This document shows, in pieces, positions 2,329 through 26,859 of a DNA stretch of 64,000 nucleotides. Each line of letters opens with the position of its first letter. Positions within the stretch are counted from its first letter, which is position 1. Origin of the DNA: Candidatus Zapsychrus exili (lineage in GTDB: Bacteria; Omnitrophota; Gorgyraeia; Zapsychrales; Zapsychraceae); NCBI GenBank assembly GCA_030765585.1, contig JAVCCJ010000121.1, positions 7,233-71,232 of the forward strand, read 5' to 3'. The notes beneath the pieces are model-generated. The model was not told the DNA's origin. It did no database searches and worked only from the letters and a program-made list of their open reading frames with translations. The position numbers and the translations under genes were made by a program.

Positions 2329-2610
2329 ATGATGGATCCGCCAGATGTTGCTTTAGTTAATTTAAGTCTTGTTGATTTGCTTGGGGATTTGGTCGTGCAG
2401 CGTTTAGCAAGAATGTCTAAAACGTCAGATGTTAAATATATATTGTATGCGCAAACAGGAGAACATCAGCAGTCTATTATTGATCATTTTGCTGAGAAAA
2501 CAGGTGTAGTCAAATGTATGGAGTATGCGCATCCAGATGAGCTATTGGCAGCGACTGATAATCTTTTTAATAAGAAGTTAATTTCTTGCGTAATAAGCAA
2601 TAATATATAA
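2329..2610 (+). CDS. Small ORF resembling the C-terminal two-thirds of a response-regulator receiver domain (possible remnant of a hybrid kinase)
   Basis: PDVALVNLSLVDLLGDLVVQRLARMSKTSDVKYILYA...GVVKCMEYAHPDELLAATDNLF parallels the REC pattern PDLVLLDLxLPDxxGxEV..PIIxLTA..GAxDYLxKP. It lacks the phospho-acceptor Asp region. Different frame from the upstream sensor. Confidence 0.25.
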   Translation: MMDPPDVALVNLSLVDLLGDLVVQRLARMSKTSDVKYILYAQTGEHQQSIIDHFAEKTGVVKCMEYAHPDELLAATDNLFNKKLISCVISNNI

Positions 2611-2632
2611 AGGGCCACTTTTATAAGTGGTC
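2604..2632 (+). terminator. Rho-independent terminator candidate after the sensor/REC-remnant unit
   Basis: gccactt-ttata-agtggtc hairpin followed by a T6 run. Confidence 0.5.
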
Positions 2633-2710
2633 TTTTTTATTGATGATGCGAAATTTTCGGAGTATAATCAAAAAGCTACTGACAAACAATGCATAACAGT
2701 TTTTAATTGA

Positions 2711-4114
2711 GTGTTACAGGAGAGTTATATGACAAGTAAAAAGAATAGAAAGACCCCTAGAAGAAAAGTGCGGATTCCTGTTTTTGCTTGGGATGCAAGT
2801 GATGAGAAAAAAGAAGGAGAAGGAAAGACTCTTGTTACAAGAGACTTGAGTGCAAATGGTATAGGGTTTTATTCTAATGATATATCTACAGTTGGTACTG
2901 TTTTAAATGTTGATATGTATTTTCCTAAAAAAGAAACACCTGTATCTTGTCAAATTAAAATCACTTTTGTTAAAGCTTTAACACAATCTTCGAAATATAT
3001 TTTAGGTGCTTTTTTTGTTGATTTAAGCGCAGAAGATAAGGAGTTTATTGTAATGTCTTTAAAGGGTATGGATCTTTATTTGCTTTTAGAGAGCATGTTA
3101 AAAGGCGGTGCTTCAGATTTGCATTTAACTGTTGGTAGACCTCCTATGGTGCGACGAGATGGAAAAATTTTGGAAATGGCAGCAGAGCCTTTAGAAGAAG
3201 GACAAATAGAGGCAATGCTATATCCTCTATTGACTGATGAACAAATTAGCCTTTTTGAACAGGTACGTGAAATGGATTTTGCTTTTTCTCCTGATGTAAG
3301 CTCTAGATTTAGAGTTAACATGCATTGGCAAAAAGGATTTGTTGAGGCAGCAATAAGAAATATTCCAACAAAAATAGCTTCCTTTCAAGAGCTTGGGCTT
3401 CCCGAGAAACAGTTAGAAGATTTTTGTAGTGAACAGGCAGGACTTCTCTTGATTGCTGGAACAACAGGATCTGGAAAAACAACGACATTATCTTCTATAG
3501 TGAATTTTATTAACAATAATTACAAAAAAGTTATTATTACTGTGGAAGACCCTATTGAATATACCTTTAAAAGTAATAACAGTATTATAAAACAAAGAGA
3601 GCTGGGGAGCGATACTCGCTCATATGCTGAGGCCTTAAAAAGAGGTCTAAGGCAAGACCCTGATATTCTTTGTGTTGGAGAAATCTTAGACGGAGAGTGT
3701 TTGTCGGCAGCATTGCGAGCAGCCGAAACAGGACATTTGGTTATATCAACTGTTCATGCTCCTAATGCAATTTCTGCCATCGAAAGATGCGTAAACTTTT
3801 TTCCACCAGAACATTCAGCGTCTATTTGTCAGCAAATATCTTCTTGTCTTTCTTCTATATTGTTTCAGGTGCTTATTCCTAGAAAAGACCAAAAAGGGAG
3901 GTTGCTTGCTACAGAATTGTTGTTAAACAATCATGCTGTAAAAAATTTAATAAGAGAAGGCAGATTTAGTATGATGCCTAATGTAATGCAAACTGGTCGT
4001 AATGTTGGAATGTATACTATTGAAAATAGTTTAGAGGAGTTTTATAAAAAAGGTCTTATAGAAGAAAGCGTTATGTTAGATTATATAAATCAAGATTATA
4101 CTCAAAAGTTATAA
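2711..4114 (+). CDS. pilT: PilZ-domain / PilT-family retraction ATPase fusion
   Basis: N-terminal PilZ signatures (RRKVRIP ... DLSANGIGFYS). C-terminal PilT/GspE core: Walker A GTTGSGKTTTLSS, VEDPIEY, ILCVGEILD, TGHLVISTVHA. Confidence 0.8.
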   Translation: MLQESYMTSKKNRKTPRRKVRIPVFAWDASDEKKEGEGKTLVTRDLSANGIGFYSNDISTVGTVLNVDMYFPKKETPVSCQIKITFVKALTQSSKYILGAFFVDLSAEDKEFIVMSLKGMDLYLLLESMLKGGASDLHLTVGRPPMVRRDGKILEMAAEPLEEGQIEAMLYPLLTDEQISLFEQVREMDFAFSPDVSSRFRVNMHWQKGFVEAAIRNIPTKIASFQELGLPEKQLEDFCSEQAGLLLIAGTTGSGKTTTLSSIVNFINNNYKKVIITVEDPIEYTFKSNNSIIKQRELGSDTRSYAEALKRGLRQDPDILCVGEILDGECLSAALRAAETGHLVISTVHAPNAISAIERCVNFFPPEHSASICQQISSCLSSILFQVLIPRKDQKGRLLATELLLNNHAVKNLIREGRFSMMPNVMQTGRNVGMYTIENSLEEFYKKGLIEESVMLDYINQDYTQKL

Positions 4115-4145: not shown

Positions 4146-4175
4146 TGCCTCGCCTAAAATGCGAGGCATTTTAGT
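4146..4175 (+). terminator. Rho-independent terminator candidate
   Basis: tgcctcgc-ctaaaat-gcgaggca hairpin followed by attttag. Confidence 0.5.
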
Positions 4176-9200: not shown

Positions 9201-11087
9201 ATGAAAAAATACAGCATATCAAAAAAGAGCATACTTTCTATTATGTGCATGTCGTTATTATTAATGACGTGTATTGCCACATCTTTTGCTTTAGCTGAAG
9301 ATGCGGCCGAAACAAAAGAAACCATTGATACTCTGGGTATTGCCGAAATTAGCATGATAAAAGGAGAACTTGATACACTTAAAGTTTATTCTTTGACCAG
9401 AGTTTCTTTAACTGATCCGTCTGTAGCTGATATTGTTGATGCAAACGCTAACGAGATTTTACTTATCGCAAAAGAAGAGGGCCAAACAGCGCTTTTTATT
9501 TGGGATAAACATGGAAAAAGAACTCTTGCGGTAAATGTTTTTAATCAACATTTAGAAAGTATTAAAGGTAGACTTGAAGACTTGCTTGATTCTGCTGGTA
9601 TTTCTGGAATAGTGGTCGAAGTCAACAAAAAAGAAGGAAAGGTCATTGTTGTTGGAGATATAAACGAAGAGCAACAAGAACATTTTGATAAAATTATAGC
9701 ACCTTTTGACAGAGATCTTATTTTATTGACCAGAGAAGAAAAAGCCGAAGATCTTATTCAAATAGATTTGCAAATCACAGAGCTAATTACAACTTTATCT
9801 GAAACCATAGGTGTAGATTGGTCTGCAGGTGATGAAAATAGTGTTGTGTTAACATACGCAGAAAATATGCCTACTTTCAATCAAGGGGGAGTTCAGGATA
9901 TTGTAAAAGTAGGAGCTTTTAATAGAACCTCAGCTTTGCTTGCAACAGTAAATGCTCTTGTATCAGAAGGAAAAGCAAGAATACTTTCTCAACCAAAACT
10001 AGTTGTTGTTAGTGGAGAAGAAGCAAGTTTTTTAGTTGGAGGTGAGATACCAGTTAGGACAACAACTGTTAATGATGATGGTACTGCGGAAAATATAGAA
10101 TATAAAGAATATGGCATTGGTATGACAATTCAACCTACTATTAGAAAAGAGAAAATTGATATAATTCTTGATACAGAAATAAGTGATATAGACGGTTCTT
10201 CTCCTGCAGGAGCAGATGATGTTGCATTCTTAACTAGAGCAGCTCAAACACAACTTTATCTTGAAGACGGGCAAACGATTGTTATCGCTGGTTTGATTAA
10301 AAGTAATAAAAATGAAAGTAGAACTTCGGTTCCATTTTTTAGCAAAATTCCTGTTTTAGGGCTTTTGTTTAGAAGTAGATCTAATCCAGCGGCGAATCAA
10401 GATACAGAAATTGTTATATCTCTTACACCTCATATTTTAGTGGAAGAGAAGAGAAAAGAGGTTGTGGTAGATGAGATAAAAGAAATAGTTAGAAGAGAAG
10501 AAATTATTACTATAATTAATAATGTTTTAGAAGAAGAGATTGTGGAAATTGATGAAGTGGTTGAAGAGACAGAAGGAATGGAAAATGTAGCAGAGAATGC
10601 AGAAGCGGCAAATAAAGGTACTATTTATACAGAGGAAGCTACAGAATTAGAAGAAGTTGAGGCAATTATTGAGGAAGAAAAGGAAGCAGAAGAAGTTGAT
10701 TTGTTTTTTTTAGCAGACGATGATTCTGTTCCAATAGATGAAAAGCCTTATCAAGCGCCAGAAAATGATTATATTTTAGAAGGTATTCCTGAAGAGATGC
10801 AGAACTATGTAAAGGGTGTTCAGCAAGCAATTTTTGAGTCCATATCCTATCCTATCGAAGCAGAAAATTATGGCTGGGAAGGTATGGTTAAGTTAGGTAT
10901 GCTTATTTTAGACGACGGAACACTTGCTTTTGCTCTTGTTAAAGAATCTTCAGGATACGAAGTTTTTGATAACAACGCTTTAGAAACAGCTAAGAATTTA
11001 GCACCATATCCGGCATTTCCATCTGATACTGATCTTATGGAGTTAAGCGTAACAATACCTATCGTATATTCCTTAGATAGTAAATAG
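9201..11087 (+). CDS. cpaC: Tad/T2SS-family secretin (CpaC/RcpA-like) with an acidic linker and a C-terminal TonB_C-like domain
   Basis: Signal peptide. Secretin core ILSQPKLVVVSGEEASFLVGGEIPV...IVIAGLIKSNKNESRTSVPFFSKIPVLGLLFRS. Glu-rich linker. C-terminus ISYPIEAENYGWEGMVKLGMLILDDGTLAFALVKESSGYEVFDNNALETAKNLAPYPAFP...IPIVYSL matches the TonB C-terminal pattern. Confidence 0.8.
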   Translation: MKKYSISKKSILSIMCMSLLLMTCIATSFALAEDAAETKETIDTLGIAEISMIKGELDTLKVYSLTRVSLTDPSVADIVDANANEILLIAKEEGQTALFIWDKHGKRTLAVNVFNQHLESIKGRLEDLLDSAGISGIVVEVNKKEGKVIVVGDINEEQQEHFDKIIAPFDRDLILLTREEKAEDLIQIDLQITELITTLSETIGVDWSAGDENSVVLTYAENMPTFNQGGVQDIVKVGAFNRTSALLATVNALVSEGKARILSQPKLVVVSGEEASFLVGGEIPVRTTTVNDDGTAENIEYKEYGIGMTIQPTIRKEKIDIILDTEISDIDGSSPAGADDVAFLTRAAQTQLYLEDGQTIVIAGLIKSNKNESRTSVPFFSKIPVLGLLFRSRSNPAANQDTEIVISLTPHILVEEKRKEVVVDEIKEIVRREEIITIINNVLEEEIVEIDEVVEETEGMENVAENAEAANKGTIYTEEATELEEVEAIIEEEKEAEEVDLFFLADDDSVPIDEKPYQAPENDYILEGIPEEMQNYVKGVQQAIFESISYPIEAENYGWEGMVKLGMLILDDGTLAFALVKESSGYEVFDNNALETAKNLAPYPAFPSDTDLMELSVTIPIVYSLDSK

Positions 11088-11114
11088 CAAATTTTAATAA
11101 AGAAATTTTAGTTT

Positions 11115-13274
11115 ATGAGCTGTAAAACAATTACTATCTTTAGTAACAAAGGTGGCGTAGGAAAAACTTTTGTTACTATTAATTTAGCTACCGCACTTGC
11201 ATCCGCAGGTAAAAAGACACTTGTCATCGATTTAGATTTTCAAGCAGGCCAAGATATGGCAAGAATGCTTAATTTATCTCCTAGAGGGTCTGTTGCTGAC
11301 TCTTTGTCTAACATAGAAAGCGCAGAGAATCCTGATGTAATAAAAGAATACGTAGCACAACATAAGTCAGGCTTGCACTTTATTCCTGCCGTTAAGAATA
11401 CCAAACAAATAGGTCATGTTACCCCAGACAATATTAAGCTTTTTATGAAGAAAGTAGCTAAGGTATATGATTATATTTTAGTTGATGCCGGTAGATCATT
11501 TAATGAAACTCTTGTAACAGTATTTGATTATTCTAATCTTATATTGCTTGTTGCTACTCCAGATGTTTTGGCAGTTTATCAGGTAAAGTGGTGTTTAGAT
11601 ATTTTGCAAAATCTACAGTTTCCTGCAAATATGATAAAGCTTATATTAAATAGATCTGAGAGCAAAGGCTCTGTGGCGTGGCAAGAAATAAGGACTGCCT
11701 TGCCTTGTGAAATCTTTAGTCATATTCCTTCTGACGGCAAAATAGTTGGTACTGCGATGAATAGAGGTGTTCCATGTGTTTTAGATAGCCCTAAATCTAA
11801 GGTTGCGGAAGCGTTTGTTAAGATGACACATATGCTAAGTCGAGAAGATATTTTTGTTGATGTAGCTGATACTGATAAGATTCGATCAACAGAAGGATTT
11901 GTGAAACCTGGTCAATTTTGGGAGAAGTTTGGGATATTTAAACAAAGCGGGCAAACAGAAAATGTTCTCGGCACTGTAGAAGATGAATTTGCTAATTTAA
12001 AACAAAAAATACATGAAAAACTTATTGAAAGACTTAACTTAGAAGGCATTACTCTTGAGAATTTGAATGATCAGCAGACAATAGAAAAAGTTAAAAAGTC
12101 TTCAGAAGATATTGTAAGAGATTTGTTGGCAGAAGAAATGGGTGGTAATATTTCTTCTCATGAAGAGCGAGCCAGAATAATTAAAGATATTGTAAACGAG
12201 GCTCTTGGATTAGGTCCCTTGGAAGATCTTCTCGCTGATCCGGACGTAACTGACATTATGGTTAATAGTAAAAATGAAATTTATGCTGAAAAGAACGGAA
12301 AAATAATATTAACTAATAAAACTTTTGTGTCAGATTCAAAGATGAGGGCGATTATTGATAGAATTATTGCTCCTTTAGGAAGACGTATTGACGAATCAAC
12401 ACCTATGGTTGATGCGCGACTTCCGGATGGTTCAAGAATTAATGCTATTATCCCACCTTTAGCATTAAACGGACCAATGATTACTATTAGAAAATTTGGA
12501 CAAGAAAGACTTACTATCGCAGATTTGCTTACTATGCATAAAAGTATTACACCTGAGATATCGTCTTTTTTGCAGGCTGCTGTTGTTGCGCGTAAAAATA
12601 TTATTGTCTCCGGAGGAACAGGTGCTGGTAAAACAACACTTTTAAATGTACTTTCTGAGTTTATTCCCGACGGAGAGCGTATTATTACAATAGAAGATGC
12701 TGCTGAGCTTAGACTCAAGAAAACTCATTGTGGAAGGCTTGAATCTAGACCAGCAAACGTTGAAGGAAAAGGAAAAATAACGATAAGAGATTTATTTGTT
12801 AATTGTCTTCGTATGCGTCCAGATAGAATTGTTATTGGTGAGTGTCGTGGTGGAGAGGTATTAGATATGCTTCAGGCAATGAATACAGGACACGATGGAT
12901 CCCTTACAACAATTCATGCTAATTCTACGAGAGATGTTTTGACGCGTCTTCACTCTTTGATTTTATTAAGTGGTATTGAACTTCCAGTTCGTGCAATAAA
13001 CGAGATGGTAGCCTCTGCAATAGATTTGATTGTCCACATAAGCCGTTATTCTGATGGTACAAGAAAAGTAACAGGAGTGTCTGAGGTAATTGGGATAGAT
13101 GATGAATTCCAAATAATTTTAAATGATGTTTTTATCTTTAATCAGCAAGGTATTGATGAGAATGGCAATATTATTGGAAATTATGAAGCCACTGGATATG
13201 TTCCTGAATGTTACGAAGATTTTTCAACGCGCGGTATTAAGATTGATAAAGCAATATTTAATAAACCAAAATAA
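11115..13274 (+). CDS. cpaF: Fusion of a CpaE/TadZ-like ParA/MinD ATPase with a CpaF/TadA secretion ATPase
   Basis: N-terminal deviant Walker A SNKGGVGKTFVTINLA...VIDLDFQ. C-terminal TadA core GGTGAGKTTLLNVL, ITIEDAAEL, RPDRIVIGECRGGE, NTGHDGSLTTIHAN. Confidence 0.8.
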   Translation: MSCKTITIFSNKGGVGKTFVTINLATALASAGKKTLVIDLDFQAGQDMARMLNLSPRGSVADSLSNIESAENPDVIKEYVAQHKSGLHFIPAVKNTKQIGHVTPDNIKLFMKKVAKVYDYILVDAGRSFNETLVTVFDYSNLILLVATPDVLAVYQVKWCLDILQNLQFPANMIKLILNRSESKGSVAWQEIRTALPCEIFSHIPSDGKIVGTAMNRGVPCVLDSPKSKVAEAFVKMTHMLSREDIFVDVADTDKIRSTEGFVKPGQFWEKFGIFKQSGQTENVLGTVEDEFANLKQKIHEKLIERLNLEGITLENLNDQQTIEKVKKSSEDIVRDLLAEEMGGNISSHEERARIIKDIVNEALGLGPLEDLLADPDVTDIMVNSKNEIYAEKNGKIILTNKTFVSDSKMRAIIDRIIAPLGRRIDESTPMVDARLPDGSRINAIIPPLALNGPMITIRKFGQERLTIADLLTMHKSITPEISSFLQAAVVARKNIIVSGGTGAGKTTLLNVLSEFIPDGERIITIEDAAELRLKKTHCGRLESRPANVEGKGKITIRDLFVNCLRMRPDRIVIGECRGGEVLDMLQAMNTGHDGSLTTIHANSTRDVLTRLHSLILLSGIELPVRAINEMVASAIDLIVHISRYSDGTRKVTGVSEVIGIDDEFQIILNDVFIFNQQGIDENGNIIGNYEATGYVPECYEDFSTRGIKIDKAIFNKPK

Positions 13275-13305
13275 ATCCCACCATAAATAAGTTGTAATCC
13301 TTCGT

Positions 13306-13647
13306 ATGCAAATTATAAATATAACAAATAATACCACAATTGCAACTGATGTTGTCGTTGCCGATACTTTTAAAACTCGAGCAATAGGCCTTTTAAATAG
13401 AGAGGGCATTAATGATGGCGAGGCTCTTGTGATCACAAGATGCCAGTCAATACATATGTTTTTTATGAAATTTGCTATTGATGTAATTTTTGCAGATAAA
13501 AATAATCGTGTTGTTGGGCTAGTTAAAACGATAAAACCTTTTTGTTTGAGCCCTCTATTCTTTAAAGCAAATTATGCTGTTGAGCTTTCATCTGGCACAA
13601 TACTTGCCACAAATACCTCTATTGGAGATCAAATAGAGCTAGCGTAA
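13306..13647 (+). CDS. DUF192 (COG1430) family protein
   Basis: ...GLLNREGINDGEALVITRCQSIHMFFMKFAIDVIFADKNNRVVG... fits the DUF192 pattern (GLM.R..L....GMLF.F.....HM..M.FPLDVIF). Confidence 0.5.
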   Translation: MQIINITNNTTIATDVVVADTFKTRAIGLLNREGINDGEALVITRCQSIHMFFMKFAIDVIFADKNNRVVGLVKTIKPFCLSPLFFKANYAVELSSGTILATNTSIGDQIELA

Positions 13648-13922
13648 CCAAAGCCCCTACCTTTTTATTGACCACAAACATACCTATGTTATACTACAAG
13701 TAAGAAATGTCCAATCTGAATGAGCGCATAATTTACGCGACTAAAAGAAGCGCCAATTGCAGTGTGAATTTCTACTTGTTGGTAGACAGGCATCCCTGCG
13801 AAGGTACGTAAAGTCCCGTTGGGACCACGTCCCTTTACGGGCAGGGATCTAAATGGACTCCCGCCTACGCGGGAATGACATTTGATACATTATAAAATTC
13901 AAACATAAGCGAAAGTTCATAT

Positions 13923-15905
13923 ATGGGAGTAATTTACAAGTTTAAACAAGAAGTAATTGATTTTATATTAAGTCAAAAGAAAGAAAACTCTGTGCTTAGT
14001 TGTCGTAAGCTTGCGGATATTGTGTCAAAGAAGTTTAGCTTGGTTGTATCAAAGTCTTCTATAAATACTATTCTTAAAAAAGCTCAATTAAGTAGTTCTG
14101 TTGGAAGAAGAGCTACAAAAAGTGAAAAAGGATTTAAAATTCCTGAAGCAAAGAAAATGCAAATTCAGGAGAATTTAAGGCAGGTTGGTCTTGATTTGTC
14201 TGGAAAAGATCAAAAAGATGAAAAAATGGTACAGTCTTCAGCTTTAGAATCTGATCAAGTTAAAATATTAGATAGCGAGCGTTTGGCAGCTAGTATTGAA
14301 TCTTTAATACAGGAGCCATCTGAAGAATCGCAAGAGTCTGTTATTTCTCATCAGCCTGAACCCGAGTTGGATAATGATTTAGAAGCAAAAGAAGAATTTA
14401 TTAGTCTTCAAAAAGATATTTTTGAGCAAGATATTGAGAAAGTAGAGTCACATCAGGAGAAGGAAGTAATAGAAGAAATAGATGAAGATGTTGATATTGG
14501 AGATGTTGAAAGAAAATATAATGATTTTCTTGATTATGTGGGTCATCTGCGTTCGCAAAAGAAATCATTGTCTTTCTTGAGTCGTTTTGAAGGAATGGGT
14601 GCGATTTTCTTGAAAATATTGCAATGGGAATTTGATAGTGAGGCATTTTTCAGAGATTTTCTTAAAAATAAGATAAATGGAGTGCTTTTAGACGGATTTG
14701 AAAAAGTATGCGATGCTTTTCTTTGTTTTAAACTTTTAGGGATAGATGGGCTAGAGCATATTGATAAGTATAAACATTATGCTTTGCCAGTTTTAGGTGA
14801 TTATGGAGAAGAATTCTCAAGGTTGATAGAAAATAAAGAAGATCTTGAAAATGTTTTGGTCAATTTTTCTGATGATAAATTTTTGCAAAATATAAAAGGA
14901 GAATATGTAAGAGAAAAAGAACAGCTGTTTTTAAAAGTTCGAGGATTTAAAATAATTTTTGAAGATGCAGAATCTTTGTTTATTGATGCTGGGCTTAAAT
15001 CGTTTTATAAAAATATACCACCAGAGAGACTGGCATGTTCTTTTAAAAAATCTTTTAGTTGTCTTTCAAGAAGTTTTGTAAGTAATAATTATCCAGCGGT
15101 GTTTTATCATATTGATGACGAGACACAAGAATTAGTTAGCCTAGTGAACATTGTAGATATTTTAGAGAATTTAAGCTTAAAAGTAATAAAAGAAATAGAG
15201 ATGTTGGGTTTAGATGGCGAGAATTTATCAACGTTTTCAATAATACCTAATATTAAGCGCAAGATAATTTTTGGGCTAAACGCTTCTTGTCAGGCAGTAA
15301 AGATACAGTTGCAGCAGCTGGATTCTTCCTTAACAAAACCTTTTTATCATGAACAAGCAGACAAAATTTATTATTACTGTGAAGATACTATTATTTCTTC
15401 TGAAGATAAAAACGGCAAGCAAACAGATTTAAAATTGATAGCACTTTGTTCTGATAAGACTAAAGATTTTGAACTTGTTATTGTTACAAATATGGTTTCA
15501 TCTGTGGCTTTTGATATAATTTCTGCTTATTTTGACAGAATTCCATATTTGCCAAGTTCTTTTTCTGTTTGTGATGCAATAGATTGTGATAATGCTTTTG
15601 ACAATGTAGACGTTTTAAGTGTTTTGGATGTCATAAATGACCTTAAAAGTGTGTTTGATAATTGTTTCCAGCGTTATCTCTTTGGAGCTGGGATATCTTC
15701 TGATAATGTAAGTGACTTTAAGGCAAAGCTTTATGAACTTCCAGGCTATTTGCAAAAGGATAATGAGCTTCTAAAGGTTATTTTAGATGCATCTGAAGAC
15801 TTTCCTTATTTTAAGGAATTGCAGAATATTGTTAAGGTTGTAAATAGTCAAAATATTTTAGATAAAGAAAATCGTAAGATTTTCATTGAAATTGCTCCTT
15901 CTTGA
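13923..15905 (+). CDS. Hypothetical 660-aa protein between the tad machinery and the pilin array; N-terminal HTH-like segment, acidic linker, large uncharacterized C-terminal domain
   Basis: Long ORF with codon usage like its neighbours. N-terminus SCRKLADIVSKKFSLVVSKSSINTILKK is HTH-like. No recognizable catalytic motifs. Confidence 0.5.
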   Translation: MGVIYKFKQEVIDFILSQKKENSVLSCRKLADIVSKKFSLVVSKSSINTILKKAQLSSSVGRRATKSEKGFKIPEAKKMQIQENLRQVGLDLSGKDQKDEKMVQSSALESDQVKILDSERLAASIESLIQEPSEESQESVISHQPEPELDNDLEAKEEFISLQKDIFEQDIEKVESHQEKEVIEEIDEDVDIGDVERKYNDFLDYVGHLRSQKKSLSFLSRFEGMGAIFLKILQWEFDSEAFFRDFLKNKINGVLLDGFEKVCDAFLCFKLLGIDGLEHIDKYKHYALPVLGDYGEEFSRLIENKEDLENVLVNFSDDKFLQNIKGEYVREKEQLFLKVRGFKIIFEDAESLFIDAGLKSFYKNIPPERLACSFKKSFSCLSRSFVSNNYPAVFYHIDDETQELVSLVNIVDILENLSLKVIKEIEMLGLDGENLSTFSIIPNIKRKIIFGLNASCQAVKIQLQQLDSSLTKPFYHEQADKIYYYCEDTIISSEDKNGKQTDLKLIALCSDKTKDFELVIVTNMVSSVAFDIISAYFDRIPYLPSSFSVCDAIDCDNAFDNVDVLSVLDVINDLKSVFDNCFQRYLFGAGISSDNVSDFKAKLYELPGYLQKDNELLKVILDASEDFPYFKELQNIVKVVNSQNILDKENRKIFIEIAPS

Positions 15906-16082
15906 TAGACTTTGTAATTTATTGTAGCGTTTTTCGCTAACTTGCCTAAAGGAAGCGTTATTCATATTTCCTCCGATGCTTCTTGACGATACTTATACAT
16001 ATGATATACTTTATAGTACTAAGGGTTTTGTGCTTAGTTTTGATAAAAACGCTTAAAATAGTATTTGAGGCGTTTTGGTTAT

Positions 16083-16111
16083 TTGACATGTTATATTTAT
16101 ATGTTATATTT
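16083..16111 (+). promoter_or_regulatory. Sigma70-like promoter candidate upstream of the pilin array (TTGACA-N16-TATATT), embedded in a tandem 13-mer atgttatatttat x2
   Basis: Perfect -35 hexamer. Acceptable -10 after a 16-17 nt spacer. Lies about 180 nt upstream of the first flp gene. Confidence 0.3.
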
Positions 16112-16144
16112 ATTGGATAAAATGCCTAAAATTAGGCTTTTAAT

Positions 16145-16210
16145 TCTTCAAAAATTTAAGAGGATATGAAATATCCTGATTTTTGAAGAGATTCTGAATA
16201 ATCAGAATCA
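16145..16210 (+). promoter_or_regulatory. Two adjacent perfect hairpins/palindromes between the promoter candidate and flp1 (possible operator or attenuator)
   Basis: tcttcaaaaat-ttaagaggatatgaaatatcctgatt-atttttgaaga is a nested palindrome. It is followed by gattctgaataatcagaatc. Confidence 0.3.
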
Positions 16211-16294
16211 TACAGCCCCTTTTGCATAGGAGAAGAAGACGTTAAAGGAAGAGTGGGGGCAAGGTCATTTGTAGCAACAGATAGGTAAACCGCG

Positions 16295-16459
16295 ATGATG
16301 CATTTAATAAAAACAAAAGGAAACAAGGGTCAACACTTAATAGAATATGCCATGGTCGCGGCTATTGTAGCAGCAGCAGTGGTCGCTATGAGTACCTATG
16401 TGTTTAGGTCAGTTCAGTCTACGCAACAAATGATTCATAAAGAGTCTAGAAACGAATAA
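16295..16459 (+). CDS. flp: Flp-family prepilin (54 aa); below the ORF-track size cut-off
   Basis: MMHLIKTKGNKGQHLIEYAMVAAIVAAAVVAMSTYVFRSV.. has the G/QHLIEY class-III prepilin motif and a hydrophobic helix. Read directly from the DNA. Confidence 0.6.
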   Translation: MMHLIKTKGNKGQHLIEYAMVAAIVAAAVVAMSTYVFRSVQSTQQMIHKESRNE

Positions 16460-16517
16460 CAAGAAGTTAGAACAAAAGTAAAATAGAATTGATAACCTTT
16501 TAAGGAGGTCATAAGCG

Positions 16518-16739
16518 ATGTTAAAAAGAAATAAATTAAAAGTACAAACAAAGAAAAAAGGACAAAGCACGGTTGAATATATTATTTTAGTTGCTGGTGT
16601 TTTAGCAGCTTTAATTGTATTTCTACGACCAGGTGGTCCATTTAATAATGCATTAGACTCAACTTTAAATTCACAATTAAGCGAAATGAACACTATGTCT
16701 AGTAGATTAGCGGATTCTCATAATCCAGACGTAAGATGA
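16518..16739 (+). CDS. flp: Flp-family prepilin
   Basis: Strong SD aaggagg. KKGQSTVEYIILVAGVLAALIVF contains G/QSTVEY. Confidence 0.75.
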   Translation: MLKRNKLKVQTKKKGQSTVEYIILVAGVLAALIVFLRPGGPFNNALDSTLNSQLSEMNTMSSRLADSHNPDVR

Positions 16740-16781
16740 CGAACGCTATGTTTAGTAGATTAGCGGATTCTCATAATCCAG
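16693..16781 (+). repeat. 36-nt tandem duplication (period 53 nt) spanning the stop codon of the second flp gene
   Basis: ctatgtctagtagattagcggattctcataatccag (16693-16728) and ctatgtttagtagattagcggattctcataatccag (16746-16781). Confidence 0.7.
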
Positions 16782-16873
16782 GCTAATCTAGGCGTATAGT
16801 TTTTTTTGTAGTAGAATTAATTGTAGAATTTAATCAGTTGAAAGTTAAATTTTATTTTAGGAGGATTAAACAA

Positions 16874-17245
16874 ATGTTAAGAAAATTAATTAAAAATAAG
16901 AAAGCTCAGAATACTGCAGAATACGCTATTTTGATATCTCTTGTTGTAGCTGGTATTGTTGCTATGCAGACGTATGCGCAACGTGCTCTTCAAGCAAGAG
17001 TTTATTCAGCATCTGAGTTGTTATCAACTTCTGCAAATAGTACAGAGGCCGCAGGTTGGTCTTTAGGCGAAGAAAAACAATATGAACCTTATTATCTTAA
17101 TCAAAGTTATGATGTTACATCAGAAGATCAAGAACGCCGTAGTCTAGGAAATCAAGATGTTTCCATGGATACAGCTTCTAATAGAACTAGACAAACAGGT
17201 GGCTATCAAAATACGATGTGGAATGCAGACGACCACATGAACTAA
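16874..17245 (+). CDS. Flp/TadE-like prepilin with an extended C-terminal domain (start taken at the internal Met with SD ggagg, not 16838)
   Basis: MLRKLIKNKKAQNTAEYAILISLVVAGIVAM contains A/QNTAEY. Confidence 0.65.
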   Translation: MLRKLIKNKKAQNTAEYAILISLVVAGIVAMQTYAQRALQARVYSASELLSTSANSTEAAGWSLGEEKQYEPYYLNQSYDVTSEDQERRSLGNQDVSMDTASNRTRQTGGYQNTMWNADDHMN

Positions 17246-17296
17246 GAGTTTAGTTTAAGTACTAAGGTTTAAACTTTATTTAGGAGGATATAAAAG

Positions 17297-17632
17297 ATGT
17301 TAAAATATTTAAATAAAAGACGTAAAAAAGGACAAAGCACACTAGAATATGCTGTTTTAATTATTATTATTATTGGTGCTCTGCTGTCTATTCAGGTTTA
17401 CATTAAAAGAGGTATTCAGGGTCGTCTTAAAAGTGCAACAGATGACATCGGCGATCAATTCTCGCCAGGTAATACAAATGTTAAAGCTTATACTAGAACT
17501 GAGTCCAGGACAATAGAGACTAATGATAAAGGAGCAGCAAGTTCTGTTCTGAGGGAAGATGAGTTAACAGTTTCTAATATGGTTTCCAATGTTATTGATG
17601 TTGAACAAGAATATTGGGGTGGACCAGAGTAG
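17297..17632 (+). CDS. flp: Flp-family prepilin
   Basis: SD ggagg. RRKKGQSTLEYAVLIIIIIGALLSI. Confidence 0.7.
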   Translation: MLKYLNKRRKKGQSTLEYAVLIIIIIGALLSIQVYIKRGIQGRLKSATDDIGDQFSPGNTNVKAYTRTESRTIETNDKGAASSVLREDELTVSNMVSNVIDVEQEYWGGPE

Positions 17633-17854
17633 AGATTAGATGTATTTGTATTTAAATATAAAAGGGGGCATGTTTTTACAACGTGTCCTCTTTTTTGTGT
17701 TTGAATCTATTAGGCGCGGTCTCATCTGGGGCGTTGGGTAGCTACTGTCGCCAAGTATATTTCTTGTATGTGTTATTGTCTTTATAAAAAACATAGTGTA
17801 TACTTAATATACGAATATTAGTATTAATTTTTATTAGTAAGGTAAAATAATATT

Positions 17855-18289
17855 ATGTTAAGACTGTTTAAAGAAAAAAAAGCACAGACCAGCATAGGCG
17901 AATATGCTCTAACTTTCTTTTTGGTCATTGGAGCTATAGCTACAATGACTATTTTTGTTAGAAGAGCCATTCAAGCAAGAATTTATTCAGCACATAAAAT
18001 AATAGCTGATACTGTTGAAACTCGTGCCGCAGGATACAAAATGGCAGGAAATGTTTTTGTTGAATATGAGCCTTATTATACGAACACAGTTATGCAGAGA
18101 AGCATGAGCGCGTCTGCCAATGCTGAGCTTATGTCAAGTGGCGTAGGAACGTCGGGAATTTTTACGAAAGAGTCGTCAGAAGAATCGACTGTTGATAGTA
18201 CAAGCGGTGTAGCAGCGCCTAGCGGAGAGTCAGGTGCGGCTAGAGTGATAGGAGACAATGCAAGCGTACCGCCGCCCAATGGTGATTAA
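17855..18289 (+). CDS. Flp/TadE-like prepilin with a Ser/Gly-rich C-terminal extension
   Basis: EKKAQTSIGEYALTFFLVIGAIATMTIF. Confidence 0.6.
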   Translation: MLRLFKEKKAQTSIGEYALTFFLVIGAIATMTIFVRRAIQARIYSAHKIIADTVETRAAGYKMAGNVFVEYEPYYTNTVMQRSMSASANAELMSSGVGTSGIFTKESSEESTVDSTSGVAAPSGESGAARVIGDNASVPPPNGD

Positions 18290-18305
18290 GAATAGGTAAA
18301 GAATT

Positions 18306-18647
18306 ATGAAAATAAAGAAAATATTATTTGAAAACAAAGCGCAAACAATTTTAGAATATGCTGCTATTTTAAGCATTGTGTCTATAGCGCTTATTACAAT
18401 GAATCCTATGATAAAAAGAGCGCTGCAGGGAGCTATTAGAACTGTTGCTGACCAAATTGGAACTCAAAATGGAGCAGAGCAGGATTTTGATTCAGGTTTT
18501 CTTAATGAATCTCAGACTTCTTCTAGAGCTACAAGTTTTAAGCAAGTAGAGCAACAATTAGGCAATACTATTTATACCTACGATGATAGTACTGATATGG
18601 AGTCGACTGCTTATTCAGACTTAGGGGTAACAGATATAGATAATTAA
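18306..18647 (+). CDS. Flp/TadE-like prepilin
   Basis: ENKAQTILEYAAILSIVSIALITM. Confidence 0.6.
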   Translation: MKIKKILFENKAQTILEYAAILSIVSIALITMNPMIKRALQGAIRTVADQIGTQNGAEQDFDSGFLNESQTSSRATSFKQVEQQLGNTIYTYDDSTDMESTAYSDLGVTDIDN

Positions 18648-18684
18648 GGTAAAAGTTAAAACATAAAGGATAAAGGTACATAAA

Positions 18685-19014
18685 ATGTTAAGAATAAAGA
18701 AAAAAGGCCAGTCGTCATTAGAATATGCAACTCTTATTATTGTTGTCATTGGCGTGTTGCTTACAATGGGGGTTTATTTTAAAAGAGGTATTCAGGGAAG
18801 ATGGAAAGCATCAGCTGATGGTCTAGGCGAACAATATGATCCTAGATATACTATTTCAAATACAGTACATACAATAGAATCAAATACAGAAACATCGCTT
18901 TTTATTGTTCCTGTAGACCCCTTAAATCCTAATGATACGTTTGCAACGCATAGAGTTGATACTACTAGCGCAACTGAAACTAGAGTAGGCAATACAATAG
19001 TTGCTGGATATTAG
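18685..19014 (+). CDS. flp: Flp-family prepilin
   Basis: KKKGQSSLEYATLIIVVIGVLLTM. Confidence 0.7.
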   Translation: MLRIKKKGQSSLEYATLIIVVIGVLLTMGVYFKRGIQGRWKASADGLGEQYDPRYTISNTVHTIESNTETSLFIVPVDPLNPNDTFATHRVDTTSATETRVGNTIVAGY

Positions 19015-19102
19015 AGAAGCAGGGAATAGGTATTAGAAAAATAGGTTCTAGGGGCTAGGTGTTAGGCGATAGGTGTTAGGTTTAAACTAAAAGAAATTAA
19101 TT

Positions 19103-20773
19103 ATGAGAAAATTAAAAGAATATTTATATAAACATCCTAAGGCTCAGACAGCTATTGAATTGGCTGTTTTTGGAGCAATCTTGATATTTGTTTTAGGAGC
19201 CATAATAAAGCAAACTTTGGGCTTTAGTTATGCGCAGAACCAGGGTCTTAAGTCAATGCGTATGGCAATGACAATGTCTTTAAAGAATTCATTTTTTGGT
19301 AATGGATATCCGCAAGGAGGAGAATATGATGATACTGGTATAATTTATGGAAACAGTTCTCGTAATTCCGCATCAGTGCTTTTAGTCGAAGACAGGCTTA
19401 CTGCCGGTTCAGCCAAACATGGTACTGTTGATCGCGTTCCGCACATGTCATCGGGCGCAGGCACATTTTCAATAAATCTTTTTATGCCTCTTGATGACGA
19501 AGAAGATGTAAATATTCCGATACTCGACGTGTATGTAAATGGTAAACATTTTCCATTTCAAATGGCAAAATTTAAAACAGTTGAATTTCCTGTTCCAGAT
19601 AATCCTGATGCAGAGCCAGGAGATGATGATTATGATTATGATCGTGGTTATGGTTGGGATAAGACATGTTATCTGGCGGAAGATCCAGTATCTTCTCTTA
19701 TGTTTGATGTTGGATGTGCGCGAATATATACTTTCATTCCAAACCATCTAAGCATGAGAGGTGAAAATGGTTCAGGCATGGGTAAAGACAGGTGGTGTTC
19801 GACCAGTCCTTGTCCAGATATTAGAACAGTAGATGAAGCCTTTGATTTAGATAGAGATTTTAGGACATCGTGTTCTGGATGTCCAGAAGGCTCTGAAGTA
19901 TTGCCCGAATATAGAGAGTCTTTTGCTTGGCAATGGTATGGTGTTAAAGCGCTTAACGAAGATAAAGACTTTTTAAAAAAAGTTGAGGATGATCATTTTA
20001 TGATGGCGGCTTTTCTCGATGGAGGGACAGGTGTAAATTTAGAAACCGGATTAAACTTAATGGTTGATGTTGACGGAGATTGGCAAGAAGAATTTATTAC
20101 AAAAATATTAAAGACATCAACTAATACTGATAAAGTAAAGCATGATGCTCCTCCAGAGGACGAGAATTATGACCCAGAAAAATATCGTAGATGGTATGGA
20201 CAAATTGAAGAAGTTAGAGTTCTTGATTATCAAGAAGGAGATTTGAATTTTTCGACAGTATACAAAAATTATAATTCTGCGAATCCTAAGCCTGGTTTTA
20301 CTAGAGATGTTGCAATGTATACTTTTATAAGCGCAACAGGTGATGGTAGTAATGGAGAAGGAACATATCTTAGCATTGAAGAAGGCCAGCTTTTTGATGG
20401 TGATGAAAAACGATACATACGTAATGTTCAGAGAAAAGATCAGATTGATCTTATTTCTCGTACTATGCAATTAAGTAATAATACGGGACGCTTTTGTGGA
20501 ACCTCGCCTCTTGGGCCAATGCCTGGTGGACTTGAGCTGATTGGTTTAGCAGCAGGAGAACCTAATCCTGTTGATGTTTGTTGTATAAATGGGGCATGTA
20601 ATGGAGGCGGATCAAGTTGTTTTAGTGACGAAACCATTGCGCATACTTGTATGGATTTAAATGGTACTGCGACAGGTCCTGTTATTTATGTAAGAAGTCG
20701 CATTGCTGATTTAAGAGGTAAAAAATGGATTACTAATACTTCTGAAGATGATTATATTGAGTTTGCAAGATAA
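19103..20773 (+). CDS. Large (556 aa) TadG/pseudopilin-like protein: prepilin-type N-terminus plus a Cys-rich acidic extracellular domain
   Basis: HPKAQTAIELAVFGAILIFVLGAI N-terminus. C-terminal domain has more than 20 Cys in CxxC-like pairs and Asp-rich stretches. Confidence 0.6.
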   Translation: MRKLKEYLYKHPKAQTAIELAVFGAILIFVLGAIIKQTLGFSYAQNQGLKSMRMAMTMSLKNSFFGNGYPQGGEYDDTGIIYGNSSRNSASVLLVEDRLTAGSAKHGTVDRVPHMSSGAGTFSINLFMPLDDEEDVNIPILDVYVNGKHFPFQMAKFKTVEFPVPDNPDAEPGDDDYDYDRGYGWDKTCYLAEDPVSSLMFDVGCARIYTFIPNHLSMRGENGSGMGKDRWCSTSPCPDIRTVDEAFDLDRDFRTSCSGCPEGSEVLPEYRESFAWQWYGVKALNEDKDFLKKVEDDHFMMAAFLDGGTGVNLETGLNLMVDVDGDWQEEFITKILKTSTNTDKVKHDAPPEDENYDPEKYRRWYGQIEEVRVLDYQEGDLNFSTVYKNYNSANPKPGFTRDVAMYTFISATGDGSNGEGTYLSIEEGQLFDGDEKRYIRNVQRKDQIDLISRTMQLSNNTGRFCGTSPLGPMPGGLELIGLAAGEPNPVDVCCINGACNGGGSSCFSDETIAHTCMDLNGTATGPVIYVRSRIADLRGKKWITNTSEDDYIEFAR

Positions 20774-20783
20774 AGGTAAAAAG

Positions 20784-21056
20784 ATGAAAGATAAAAGAAA
20801 AAATAAAAGACAAAAGGCAAAATACAAGAATAGTAATTCAGCTCAGATTATTATTGAGTTTATTTTTTGTATGACTATTTTGCTTTTAATGATTTATGGA
20901 ACGCTGATGATTTTTAAATGGACGGGTTCGGATCTTGTTCACAGGCGTATCGCGCATGATGAATTATTAATAGGAGGCGGTGGCGTCCCTCTTAATCAAA
21001 TAGACCCATATTTTTATACACCTATTAAGATGAATGCTGTTTGGTCAGGGAATTAA
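20784..21056 (+). CDS. TadE-like pseudopilin (start at the internal Met 20784 with SD aaagg, not 20748)
   Basis: NSNSAQIIIEFIFCMTILLLMIYGTLMIF. Confidence 0.55.
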   Translation: MKDKRKNKRQKAKYKNSNSAQIIIEFIFCMTILLLMIYGTLMIFKWTGSDLVHRRIAHDELLIGGGGVPLNQIDPYFYTPIKMNAVWSGN

Positions 21057-21072
21057 AGAGTAAGGATAAAAA

Positions 21073-24000: not shown

Positions 24001-24306
24001 TACAAGCGTTCTGGTTTAGACAACACAGAAAACATTCCAGCCCTTGAGGCTGCTTGTCTAGGAGCTAGTAATGATCTTCTTCCGCCTATTTTAGCTGAAA
24101 GTTCAATATATAAACCTGTTTATCAACAGGCCTTTATTCTAAATAAAGCTGATGAATATCCTGCTTGTTGGAACAAAGCGATGGATCATATTAAAATGGG
24201 AGTTATGACAGAAACATGTGCGCAGTATTTTTGGTTGGGACCCGACTATGGTGGTTCAATGAATTTAAAGTTTGTTCCATGCCCTGGGTCGAACGCAGTT
24301 CAGTAA
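21073..24306 (+). CDS. Giant (1,077 aa) TadG-like minor pilin / tip-adhesin candidate: prepilin-like N-terminus, second TM, then a Cys/Trp/Asn/Asp-rich extracellular domain
   Basis: ...MRSSKGQIALLLVLVIAIALIFYAV (G/QIALL). Remainder rich in C, W, N and D with many CxxC pairs. No enzymatic motif seen. Confidence 0.6.
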   Translation: MFRRLNYILRNNYFTRSLKNIGQDIGQDKRMRSSKGQIALLLVLVIAIALIFYAVSLNLGKVSQTKTMVTIASNVATGYLASQMASWGQAKADQLEGKRKHCALTGVVAAIVGFVILIIAIVLMPESAGLSAGLIEVSIGLAVAAIVIELVWVNPQISSLWDRIMANSLSQESQFSESSIQKALQNVITDQVQVPDLHDDDMDQVWWADAPNGSSPDMMSRYAYYYKTRLNRVVPRNWTVVSEFLEALGDFIYYRPPDIDPNDDWGLMDSENDCNPLSNSECQPCCVSADARDADLDCSSLIATYGSVEGWCSAHSPYSGGSTEYPYIYNPYPFFEKIDNSRDSLRELIGRDDENTKYYADYDAFLGTQLEHGIPDPDAWNNNNDFHIEDTVGFYNNDNRKDVFSFFHQIAENITDWNWGGGVDLNDLAPREQYGAEEDLVYLEQCNWCDRNFVTPAGDPLGNCRHRTSGPGGFELGMSQLALLNSPDHNASYCVEGTEAAAEAGNPLLAVDKFTVADGIQASKDSCPEAGPGGSTGFWKPGSDQFCSNSFPYPANCAKHSLPCDVYGVYTNCPTCEASPDKTLWRDDMIDDFLYNFQHFFKWASFSMNIGVDIIRNDFVGWYDSSAEKWIDETSNPEDNDNILLGVKNNFTEMARRLKNWKNSTEYIGNVWCVPSNGTIPLPTVVPPYVNLLTPEEEVIDNAGNRGTLGNIIACLNWNISGGSGIVNKMNNCTSACQVYTTNPGDPEDPSDTVTAYAANQACYNLPTRSLSGINLQGQYHSIGSAVPGDTLDTACADSDFLSNLSESAHQGVNQTVKFQKRREFLSSLEIGLDNAIVTFNYAAEGFADFLESDEVAALKEFRADFFNVDDFTENSPYQLIYGWKDDESKVKDPLWHLVRVDARLPKKCDQENSSLCGNWQWPDIDEYTKGIFATTRCYELKNHTGGVKIRVTRYDESPKTGNLIFPNGVPIWDFKYKRSGLDNTENIPALEAACLGASNDLLPPILAESSIYKPVYQQAFILNKADEYPACWNKAMDHIKMGVMTETCAQYFWLGPDYGGSMNLKFVPCPGSNAVQ

Positions 24307-24385
24307 TGCGAAAATTATTTTACGAGAAGGTTGCAGAATTAATAATGTGGCAGGGATTGCTTTTAATACACAAGGGAAATGAAAA

Positions 24386-24730
24386 ATGTTGAAATCATTA
24401 AAAAAACATAAGAAGCCAAAAGGACAATCTTTTTTAGAATATGTTCTGCTGATTGTTTTTATTATTGCTGCTTTATTGGTTTTTCAGAAATATATTTCTC
24501 GAGCAATATGGGGAAGATATAAGTCAGTAGGAGATGCGCTTGGCAGTGGTTTGATATACGATCCAGAGAAAACGTTAGAATGTGGGTATGATCATCTGTA
24601 TGGATCTGGTTGGTACAATGCTGCTTGTTACGACGAGAATGATTGTGCACAGTATTGTGCAGCTAAGAAGCAGGCACCGTGCGTTAGTTGCATAGGGGCT
24701 TGTTTCGCTGCAAAATGTAGTGAAAATTAA
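24386..24730 (+). CDS. Flp-like prepilin with a Cys-rich C-terminal knot
   Basis: KPKGQSFLEYVLLIVFIIAALLVF. C-terminus has 9 Cys (CAQYCAAKKQAPCVSCIGACFAAKC). Confidence 0.65.
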   Translation: MLKSLKKHKKPKGQSFLEYVLLIVFIIAALLVFQKYISRAIWGRYKSVGDALGSGLIYDPEKTLECGYDHLYGSGWYNAACYDENDCAQYCAAKKQAPCVSCIGACFAAKCSEN

Positions 24731-24990
24731 ATGTTTGATGTTGGAAAATTGATATGAATATGGTGATTCCGCATGAGTCATTATTTTGATAAAAATTAAA
24801 TAAAGATATTAGGTATTTTTTTTGTTGTGATAAAATAAATTAGTAGACAGTTCGTGGGAACACAAATTGTAGGCCAAAGGCCGTCTGCGAATTTATCCCA
24901 AGCGTTAGTCGAGGGATTTTAATTAAGAGATTTTGGTAGTTTTGCTTTGCAAAAAACCGGAATGATAAACTTACGGGAGAAGTTCATTTA

Positions 24991-25848: not shown

Positions 25849-25860
25849 TAAGAGGAAAAT

Positions 25861-26754: not shown

Positions 26755-26859
26755 AACAAAGATAAAAATAGTAGATAGTAGTTTGTAGCTAGTACAACTG
26801 TCCCTCTGTGGACTATCCCTCTGTTCTGGATTTTTATTAATTATTGAATTTGATACATG

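Follow-up and report, generated by a model that had tools for sequence, protein, structure and literature searches.

A single gene in a 64-kb stretch of the genome of Candidatus Zapsychrus exili (Omnitrophota; contig JAVCCJ010000121.1), here called the window, encodes a PilZ domain and a PilT-type pilus retraction ATPase. That the two are joined in one polypeptide, which we call PilZ-PilT, is virtually certain. Judged from its sequence, the protein would be a type IVa pilus retraction ATPase gated by cyclic di-GMP (c-di-GMP), a reading to which we assign a probability of roughly 0.6. An earlier sequence-only reading of the gene had proposed a PilZ domain fused N-terminally to a PilT-type ATPase, and the comparisons described below bear this out: the Pfam PilZ family (PF07238) is matched over its cutoff, a PilZ fold is predicted, and the PilT/PilU family model TIGR01420 scores 390.8 bits.

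The reading frame is uninterrupted from 2711 to 4114 on the forward strand and holds 467 codons when counted from the GTG at 2711. The true start is likely the ATG at 2729, which gives a protein of 461 residues. It is favoured over the GTG because an AGGAG lies at 2719-2723 and because the N-termini of ~90 homologues align with it. Residues are numbered from ATG 2729 throughout; the scan of the first 120 residues for PilZ was read from GTG 2711.

2729..4114, + strand: PilZ-PilT coding sequence, 461 residues plus stop; the mechanical open reading frame (ORF) runs from GTG 2711
2719..2723, + strand: Shine-Dalgarno sequence AGGAG, 5 nt upstream of ATG 2729, read from the sequence
2729..3070, + strand: PilZ domain, residues 1-114, with N-terminal loop, six-stranded barrel and C-terminal helix (Pfam, AlphaFold2 and Foldseek)

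The N-terminal PilZ domain

Judged by its predicted fold, the N-terminal part is a PilZ domain of the canonical kind: a six-stranded barrel and then a C-terminal helix. Against a gathering cutoff of 22.5, the hidden Markov model (HMM) of PF07238 gives the full protein 26.1 bits and the first 120 residues alone 30.2 bits (E 6e-7); the match spans HMM positions 2-97 of 102. This comparison had been set beforehand as the refuting test of the fusion, and it returned the PilZ match. An AlphaFold2 (AF2) model of residues 1-118, built on a 29-sequence alignment, has a mean predicted local distance difference test score (pLDDT) of 83 and a predicted template modelling score (pTM) of 0.73. A disordered loop at the N-terminus of the model leads into six strands, and residues 101-114 form a C-terminal helix. 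When this model was compared with the PDB by Foldseek, the first 47 ranks were exclusively PilZ domains, including those of MotI/DgrA, Alg44, PA4608/MapZ, BcsA, PP4397, MrkH, YcgR, VCA0042 and PlzA. The best structural match is MotI (5vx6; E 3.6e-6, query-normalised TM-score 0.75), and 4p00 (BcsA) and 4rt0 (Alg44) are near the top.

The domain's motifs for c-di-GMP binding are as follows.

2747..2761, + strand: RxxxR motif R7-K-T-P-R11, in the register conserved in the family; R7 in 75/81 and R11 in 78/81 relatives
2759..2773, + strand: RRKVR (R11..R15), a second RxxxR reading that shares R11; R15 is poorly conserved
2843..2860, + strand: D/NxSxxG motif D39-L-S-A-N-G44; D/N in 78/84, S in 74/84 and G in 83/84 relatives

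The sequence-only reading had named RRKVR (residues 11-15) and DLSANG (residues 39-44) as the two PilZ signatures. Both are present and D/NxSxxG is conserved as it stands; the RxxxR register, however, is most likely R7..R11 and not R11..R15. R15 is Arg in 49/84 relatives and H, Q, S or F in the remainder, and R11 and R15 are both Arg in 45/81. The more distant PilZ-PilT clusters carry an RxxxR, four residues and then an (I/L)P(I/L/V) strand, a spacing by which their motif aligns with R7-K-T-P-R11. Motif decay, which had been considered when RxxxR was read as R11..R15 with its second Arg missing in ~40% of cases, was dropped, as the conserved pair is R7..R11.

The D/NxSxxG motif is whole in 69/81 close relatives, and both motifs are whole in 68/81 (84%) and in six of the seven more distant clusters. 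R7, R11, S41 and G44 rank among the twelve most conserved positions of the PilZ domain. This looks like the pattern expected of a domain selected to bind c-di-GMP, and according to a review, PilZ domains within fusion proteins keep c-di-GMP binding (10.1101/814665). From these sequence features, the domain is quite likely to bind c-di-GMP.

The PilT core

Residues 114-461 make up what, by sequence, is a complete PilT core, as had been claimed from the letters alone. TIGR01420 scores well over its cutoff of 319.1 bits and aligns over positions 4-336 of the 343-position model, no catalytic box is missing, and the Pfam T2SSE profile, a check proposed at the same time, gives 145.9 bits on the protein. 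Among solved structures, the closest in sequence are Aquifex PilT (281 bits), Geobacter PilT4, P. aeruginosa PilT and Thermus PilT2. Solved PilTs score ~266-281 bits and PilU 224, while PilB, GspE and CpaF are far lower; CpaF chains reach only ~30 bits, so that an identity as TadA/CpaF is not supported; the TadA-type ATPase of the window is encoded elsewhere, at 11115-13274. The conservation of catalytic residues listed here was scored in an alignment of 73 family members.

3068..3373, + strand: PilT N-terminal (N2D-like) domain, residues 114 to ~215, with GGASDLHL; the TIGR01420 alignment runs from residue 124 (GTG numbering) and that of Aquifex PilT from residue 113
3458..3484, + strand: Walker A GTTGSGKTT, residues 244-252; G249, K250 and T251 invariant in the 73 members
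3536..3562, + strand: Asp box ITVEDPIEY, residues 270-278; E273, P275 and E277 invariant
3656..3691, + strand: Walker B region DPDILCVGEILD, residues 310-321, with DPDILCVGE; catalytic Glu318 kept and invariant or almost so in the 73 members, Arg of GE(M/I)RD replaced by Leu320
3725..3760, + strand: His box ETGHLVISTVHA, residues 333-344; H336 and H343 at least 90% conserved
3935..3958, + strand: AIRNLIRE-type signature AVKNLIRE, residues 403-410; I408, R409 and E410 at least 90% conserved
3029..3067, + strand: PilZ C-terminal alpha-helix, residues 101-113, followed by a two-residue break and a PilT helix at 116-125 (full-length AF2 model)

The AIRNLIRE motif, which separates PilT from PilU, is thus present as AVKNLIRE. 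The full-length AF2 model has a pLDDT of 92.1 and a pTM of 0.84. Overlaid on PilT4, PilT and PilU, its core gives target-normalised TM-scores of 0.83-0.92. The overlay spans no more than 352 of 461 columns, identity to ordinary PilT in the structural alignments is 39-41%, and the extra N-terminal domain is absent from all solved PilT structures in the comparison. The linker between the PilZ and PilT parts is at most three residues long, which makes for a rigid joint.

A proposed route from c-di-GMP to the motor

In the mechanism that we propose, c-di-GMP would bind between the N-terminal loop carrying R7xxxR11 and the barrel face carrying D39xS41xxG44. Ordering of the loop would shift the PilZ C-terminal helix, which is known as a protein-interaction surface (10.1101/814665). 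The shift would reach PilT because this helix is nearly continuous with the first helix of PilT, and it may alter either the packing of the N-terminal domains in the hexamer or the docking of the hexamer on the pilus platform. Either change would gate retraction of the type IVa pilus.

As to the sign of the effect, we lean marginally towards high c-di-GMP inhibiting rather than activating retraction, by analogy with the YcgR and MotI brakes and because high c-di-GMP generally favours attachment.

Relation to known c-di-GMP-controlled machines

In the literature searched, c-di-GMP input on pili has so far been placed on the extension side (MshE/PilB through MshEN; FimX-PilZ-PilB) or in multi-protein complexes acting in trans. 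The rule given in the sequence-only reading, that PilZ proteins normally act on pilus ATPases in trans, with c-di-GMP otherwise sensed through MshEN domains, agrees with the published systems (PMC4624772; PMC3749722; PMC8389850). Roelofs et al. expected PilT and PilU not to be regulated by c-di-GMP.

One close parallel in architecture is MshE/PilB, in which an N-terminal c-di-GMP receptor and a hexameric ATPase of the T2SSE family likewise share one polypeptide, so that c-di-GMP has a direct effect on the motor (PMC4624772; PMC5013675). The receptor there is the helical MshEN domain and the motor is of the extension type, whereas PilZ-PilT has a PilZ beta-barrel and a motor of the retraction type. 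No match to PF05157 (T2SSE_N/MshEN) appeared in the Pfam scan, even at E up to 1. Because it lacks a T2SSE_N domain and its receptor has a different predicted fold, PilZ-PilT is best described as a retraction-side analogue of MshEN-MshE/PilB, not a member of that group.

Two systems tie PilZ proteins to pilus ATPases in trans. XC_2249 of Xanthomonas campestris is a PilZ protein that contacts PilT/PilU and modulates pilus-dependent motility (PMC3749722), and PilZ-PilT reads as a covalent version of this pairing. XC_2249 is, however, a separate protein, recruited via GGDEF and HD-GYP partners and with dispensable c-di-GMP binding, whereas in PilZ-PilT the two parts are separated by the short linker noted above and the motifs are conserved. 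In the FimX-PilZ-PilB complex of Xanthomonas (PilZ/PA2960 in Pseudomonas), a PilZ fold is again tied to a pilus ATPase and couples the sensing of c-di-GMP to pilus dynamics (PMC8389850; 10.1101/814665). The PilZ of this complex has neither RxxxR nor D/NxSxxG, and it is FimX, not PilZ, that binds c-di-GMP; the target is the extension ATPase PilB, and three components act in trans.

Canonical PilZ domains with a C-terminal helix are fused to the machine that they gate in BcsA and Alg44, as would be the case in PilZ-PilT, but the output of these proteins is polysaccharide synthesis or export rather than an ATPase motor, and the PilZ domain of BcsA is C-terminal. In YcgR and MotI (DgrA), a c-di-GMP-loaded PilZ directly inhibits a motility motor; these are free two-domain proteins (PilZN plus PilZ) that act on the flagellar stator or rotor, whereas a single PilZ is fused to a pilus ATPase here. 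Ordinary PilT, such as that of P. aeruginosa or Aquifex or the PilT4 of Geobacter, has the same two-domain fold, catalytic boxes and AIRNLIRE-like motif, to which PilZ-PilT adds a 114-residue PilZ domain and ten lineage-specific substitutions.

No description of a PilZ-PilT fusion was found in the literature searched, an absence that is not proof, as subscription journals were thinly covered. The main survey of PilZ domains mentions neither PilT nor any ATPase. PilZ-PilT sequences are public and carry automatic annotation as PilT/PilU only; the family has apparently been sequenced already and yet not described. If the c-di-GMP-gated reading is right, a receptor-motor fusion has evolved on the retraction side and has been kept in two clades of Omnitrophota, a candidate phylum of ultra-small, probably predatory or epibiotic bacteria. 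With PilZ-PilT, the effect of a second messenger on the conformational cycle of the PilT hexamer could be studied in one compact protein. By a Rosetta-stone argument, the contacts between separate PilZ and PilT proteins in Xanthomonas may reflect a more general regulatory logic. It would also make c-di-GMP and pilus retraction candidates for a part in the attachment biology of Omnitrophota, beside the Tad-like and giant-gene locus described below.

Distribution of the fusion

At least 200 database clusters share the PilZ-PilT architecture, and they fall into two clades. Among the best 120 clusters matched by the window protein, 90 are 430-500 residues long and align through the N-terminal domain, and a PilZ call had been precomputed for 58. 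The closest relative among the matches listed is 64% identical. Named members come from metagenome-assembled genomes (MAGs) of Candidatus Omnitrophica/Omnitrophota and are annotated 'PilT/PilU family type 4a pilus ATPase'. Most named ones are Omnitrophota and a few are labelled Planctomycetota, Patescibacteria or Deltaproteobacteria; one member of clade 1 lies on a contig with the planctomycete hallmark genes PSCyt1, PSD1 and DUF1501.

The window protein belongs to clade 1 and has the full motif set. Clade 2 is seeded by P0144, ~40% identical to the window protein, and has PilZ plus T2SSE in ~115 of its best 120 matches, mostly labelled Omnitrophota with occasional Patescibacteria and Deltaproteobacteria MAG labels. 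Its ATPase motifs are degenerate: the Asp box reads ERPIE, the first His of the His box is Tyr (GYL) and the AIRNLIRE-type signature is AVKRILRS. From these motifs, clade 2 may be a PilU-like partner of clade 1 or may have a regulatory role.

A profile of the PilZ part alone, run against 1.84 billion representatives, recovered 1,399 clusters, mostly stand-alone PilZ proteins of 110-130 residues. Seven more clusters at 50% identity have PilZ N-terminal to a T2SSE ATPase, confirmed by Pfam; six are 453-506 residues long and one is a 304-residue fragment. P0144, the seed of clade 2, belongs to these seven. A GTDB genome scan with an alignment of residues 1-150 gave three true fusion loci among the 80 matches listed. 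His199, Lys288 and an aliphatic residue at 268 are common to all PilZ-PilT clusters; ordinary PilT has Phe/Tyr, Asn and His, respectively, at these positions. These shared residues point to one lineage with an old fusion.

Genomic neighbourhood

The signals around the gene and the genes upstream of it are as follows; the promoter-like and terminator-like calls are consensus matches only.

2640..2668, + strand: sigma-70-like promoter candidate, TTGATG, 17-nt spacer and TATAAT, with 10/12 consensus matches
2609..2636, + strand: terminator-like hairpin and T run, a 12-pair stem and 4-nt loop followed by TTATTGATGA; it closes the upstream 93-residue ORF
4146..4168, + strand: terminator-like hairpin TGCCTCGC...GCGAGGCA followed by TTTT, an 8-pair stem with 6 GC pairs, 32 nt past the stop
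606-2321, + strand: HAMP-PAS membrane sensor, 571 residues, upstream of PilZ-PilT, with no recognisable output domain
within 606-2610, + strand: 93-residue ORF in a frame that differs from that of the sensor, with no Pfam match

On these signals, the PilZ-PilT gene looks like its own transcription unit, although sigma-70-like sites in the region are no more numerous than in shuffled sequence and the site at 2640..2668 is to be read as a consensus match. By eye, the sequence of the 93-residue ORF (PDVALVNLSLVDLLGDL...) resembles part of a receiver domain; the sensor and this ORF may be a decayed or frameshifted sensor-regulator pair.

Directly downstream of PilZ-PilT are genes for a 2-hydroxyacid dehydrogenase, a CN-hydrolase and a malate dehydrogenase. 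They are followed by a locus that resembles Tad and type II secretion systems (T2SS), with a Rotamase_2 peptidyl-prolyl isomerase (PPIase), RcpC/CpaB, a secretin with a TonB_C tail, a MinD/TadZ-TadA ATPase and two single-domain T2SSF proteins. The PilZ-PilT gene is 3 kb upstream of this locus and of a giant gene.

9201-11087, + strand: secretin (T2SS-T3SS_pil_N plus Secretin) with C-terminal TonB_C; the same combination occurs in the related loci L001 and L088
11115-13274, + strand: fusion of a MinD/ParA-type (TadZ/CpaE-like) and a TadA/CpaF-type ATPase, 719 residues (TIGR03819, 331 bits)
13923-24306, + strand: five ORFs of the Tad-like locus, of 660, 135, 144, 556 and 1,077 residues, without a Pfam family (at E<=0.001, and at E<=1e-4 for the 1,077-residue one)
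30255-60032, + strand: giant ORF, 9,925 residues, with Peptidase_C39, OmpA, ResIII/DEAD helicase, Peptidase_M23 and SLT transglycosylase domains and no GGDEF
60002-64000, + strand: second long frame of at least 1,333 codons, just past the giant ORF, which runs off the end of the window

The giant ORF matches the conserved giant-gene locus of Omnitrophota described by West-Roberts et al. (10.1101/2023.11.21.568195). That paper reports GGDEF domains and small pilZ genes around such giant genes and does not mention PilT. In most such loci a small pilZ gene is reported to come after the giant gene, but none does so here.

In the window, and likewise in four further genomes (L001/L002, L006, L007 and L088) whose PilZ-PilT proteins are 56-61% identical to that of the window, a single strand carries in this order PilZ-PilT, (2-hydroxyacid dehydrogenase), CN_hydrolase, malate dehydrogenase, PPIase, RcpC, secretin-TonB_C and TadZ-TadA. 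The TadZ-TadA fusion is kept at 65-70% identity in four related loci. Another genome (L003, identical to L008) keeps the metabolic genes alone, and in four clade-1 loci and all clade-2 loci the fusion lies elsewhere, in unrelated housekeeping neighbourhoods. In the clade-2 loci L086 and L089, PilZ-PilT is at 10001-11398 and 10001-11395, and the conserved neighbourhood is pantoate transferase, PilZ-PilT, class II tRNA synthetase, pyruvate phosphate dikinase (PPDK) and sigma-70. In L001 (1891-9745), PilZ-PilT and the Tad-like locus come directly after dnaA-dnaN-dciA-gyrB-gyrA, next to the likely replication origin, a placement that fits the Tad locus of V. archaeovorus LiM (12382-29832), which is reported to be close to the origin. 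An operon link between PilZ-PilT and the Tad-like locus was not established, given the flanking terminator-like hairpins and a synteny that is not universal.

Weighing of the readings

Several observations weigh against a c-di-GMP-gated type IVa retraction motor. In the only trans case that has been studied, XC_2249 with PilT/PilU, c-di-GMP binding is dispensable (PMC3749722), and one of the two motifs is lost in 13/81 close relatives. The Pfam PilZ score is just modestly over its cutoff, and neither single-sequence phmmer nor a 29-sequence family profile reached any PilZ chain in the PDB; the domain is for this reason regarded as sequence-divergent, hence the comparison by fold. The interdomain geometry rests on a monomer model. 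The 64-kb window has no pilB, pilC or pilMNOPQ, and the sole pilus-like genes nearby are of the Tad type; it also has no diguanylate cyclase, and no GGDEF, EAL or HD-GYP gene. The ATPase core, moreover, departs from ordinary PilT at ten conserved positions. These were scored against 80 ordinary PilTs of diverse phyla (loci L009-L085), which were taken as an outgroup from the GTDB genome scan; a position was called divergent when conservation reached 80% or more in the outgroup and 85% or more within the family.

Position 199: F/Y in ordinary PilT, H in the PilZ-PilT family
Position 242: V in ordinary PilT, I in the family
Position 268: H in ordinary PilT, V in the family
Position 282: H in ordinary PilT, S in the family
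Position 288: N in ordinary PilT, K in the family
Position 299: F in ordinary PilT, Y in the family
Position 320: R in ordinary PilT, L in the family
Position 339: F in ordinary PilT, I in the family
Position 344: T in ordinary PilT, A in the family
Position 356: D in ordinary PilT, N in the family

The Arg of GE(M/I)RD is present in 80/80 ordinary PilTs, and Leu stands at position 320 in 63/73 family members. By its HMM score and its catalytic motifs, the protein belongs to the PilT/PilU family. This Arg is one of two typical PilT features that are missing; the other is the short form of ~340-380 residues without an accessory domain (here 461 residues). In sequence terms, the ATPase core is a divergent PilT subtype, and it may not behave as a standard retraction motor.

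Bearing on the absence of pilus genes, pilT genes are often unlinked to other pilus genes. The ~20-kb neighbourhoods of ten related loci likewise have no pilB, pilC or pilMNOPQ. Speaking for c-di-GMP signalling in the phylum, a GAF plus HD_5/HD-type gene stands two genes upstream of the fusion in a related locus, and GGDEF domains are among those reported around the giant genes (10.1101/2023.11.21.568195). Speaking for type IVa pili, Seymour et al. report them in 135/141 genomes of Velamenicoccia; Tad components are present in 74/116 species representatives, and the terms PilT and c-di-GMP are absent from their text (PMC10066038).

The probability that the fusion itself is an artefact, produced by chimeric assembly, by an overlooked stop or frameshift or by the merging of two genes, is negligible. 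The probable metagenomic source was the only prompt for considering it, and no positive support was found. The frame is open from 2711 to 4114, and the junction EKMDLY...GGASDLHL recurs in ~90 of the 120 best clusters of clade 1 and in ~115 of 120 of clade 2. The junction is seen in NCBI, JGI, ENA and Logan assemblies, and because it recurs in such independent assemblies, an assembly artefact is excluded. With the architecture accepted, the PilZ domain could still be a ligand-independent adaptor that holds PilT at some place in the cell or next to a partner, for instance PilM, the platform or a GGDEF/HD-GYP complex, with c-di-GMP playing no part. There are precedents: XC_2249 regulates motility without needing c-di-GMP binding (PMC3749722), and in the PilB complexes of Xanthomonas and Pseudomonas the PilZ protein has no binding motifs (10.1101/814665; PMC8389850). 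The 13 of 81 family members with a broken motif and the role of the PilZ C-terminal helix as an interaction surface fit such an adaptor as well. Most relatives speak otherwise: both motifs are whole in the large majority of close relatives and in all but one of the distant clusters, their residues are among the most conserved of the domain, and the PilZ domains of fusion proteins are said to keep c-di-GMP binding (10.1101/814665). We therefore regard a pure adaptor as decidedly improbable.

A different question is which machine the motor serves. PilZ-PilT might work for the neighbouring Tad-like/T2SS-like machine and not for a type IVa pilus, for example as a dedicated c-di-GMP-gated retraction or reset ATPase for a Tad-like fibre in prey attachment; such service is compatible with c-di-GMP gating. 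The same-strand gene order that runs through TadZ-TadA in the window and four other genomes suggests it, as do the ten lineage-specific substitutions at conserved PilT positions and the fact that Tad systems normally lack a PilT-type partner. The gene, however, lies between terminator-like hairpins and has a promoter-like site of its own; between it and the Tad-like genes stand three metabolic genes, and one genome keeps just the metabolic part of the synteny. Four other genomes and all of clade 2 carry the fusion among unrelated housekeeping genes. The Caulobacter Tad pilus is reportedly driven by one bifunctional ATPase, which also counts against this assignment. Type IVa pili, for their part, are nearly universal in the phylum (PMC10066038). 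Service to the Tad-like machine thus seems unlikely. More speculative still is a lineage-specific c-di-GMP-gated motor for host or prey attachment in Omnitrophota, which in its boldest form would work with the Tad-like machine and the giant-protein locus, instead of or beside a type IVa pilus; we consider this very doubtful. If it were true, a Tad-type system would have gained a dedicated, PilT-class partner under second-messenger control, and the ten core substitutions, including loss of the GEMRD Arg, would be adaptations to control by the fused PilZ domain.

Other proteins recovered in the searches

P0073, P0087, P0091 and ~25 other matches are proteins of 690-795 residues with two complete PilT units in tandem. 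TIGR01420 matches them twice, at 825-863 bits, and their MAG labels are Alphaproteobacteria, Myxococcota, Eremiobacterota and Bradymonadia. The first match in the PilZ-profile search was P0121, a protein of 4,841 residues from Breznakia sp. annotated 'immunoglobulin-like domain-containing protein'. It matches in 25 stretches, possibly copies of a beta-barrel or sandwich module whose likeness to the PilZ profile is superficial.

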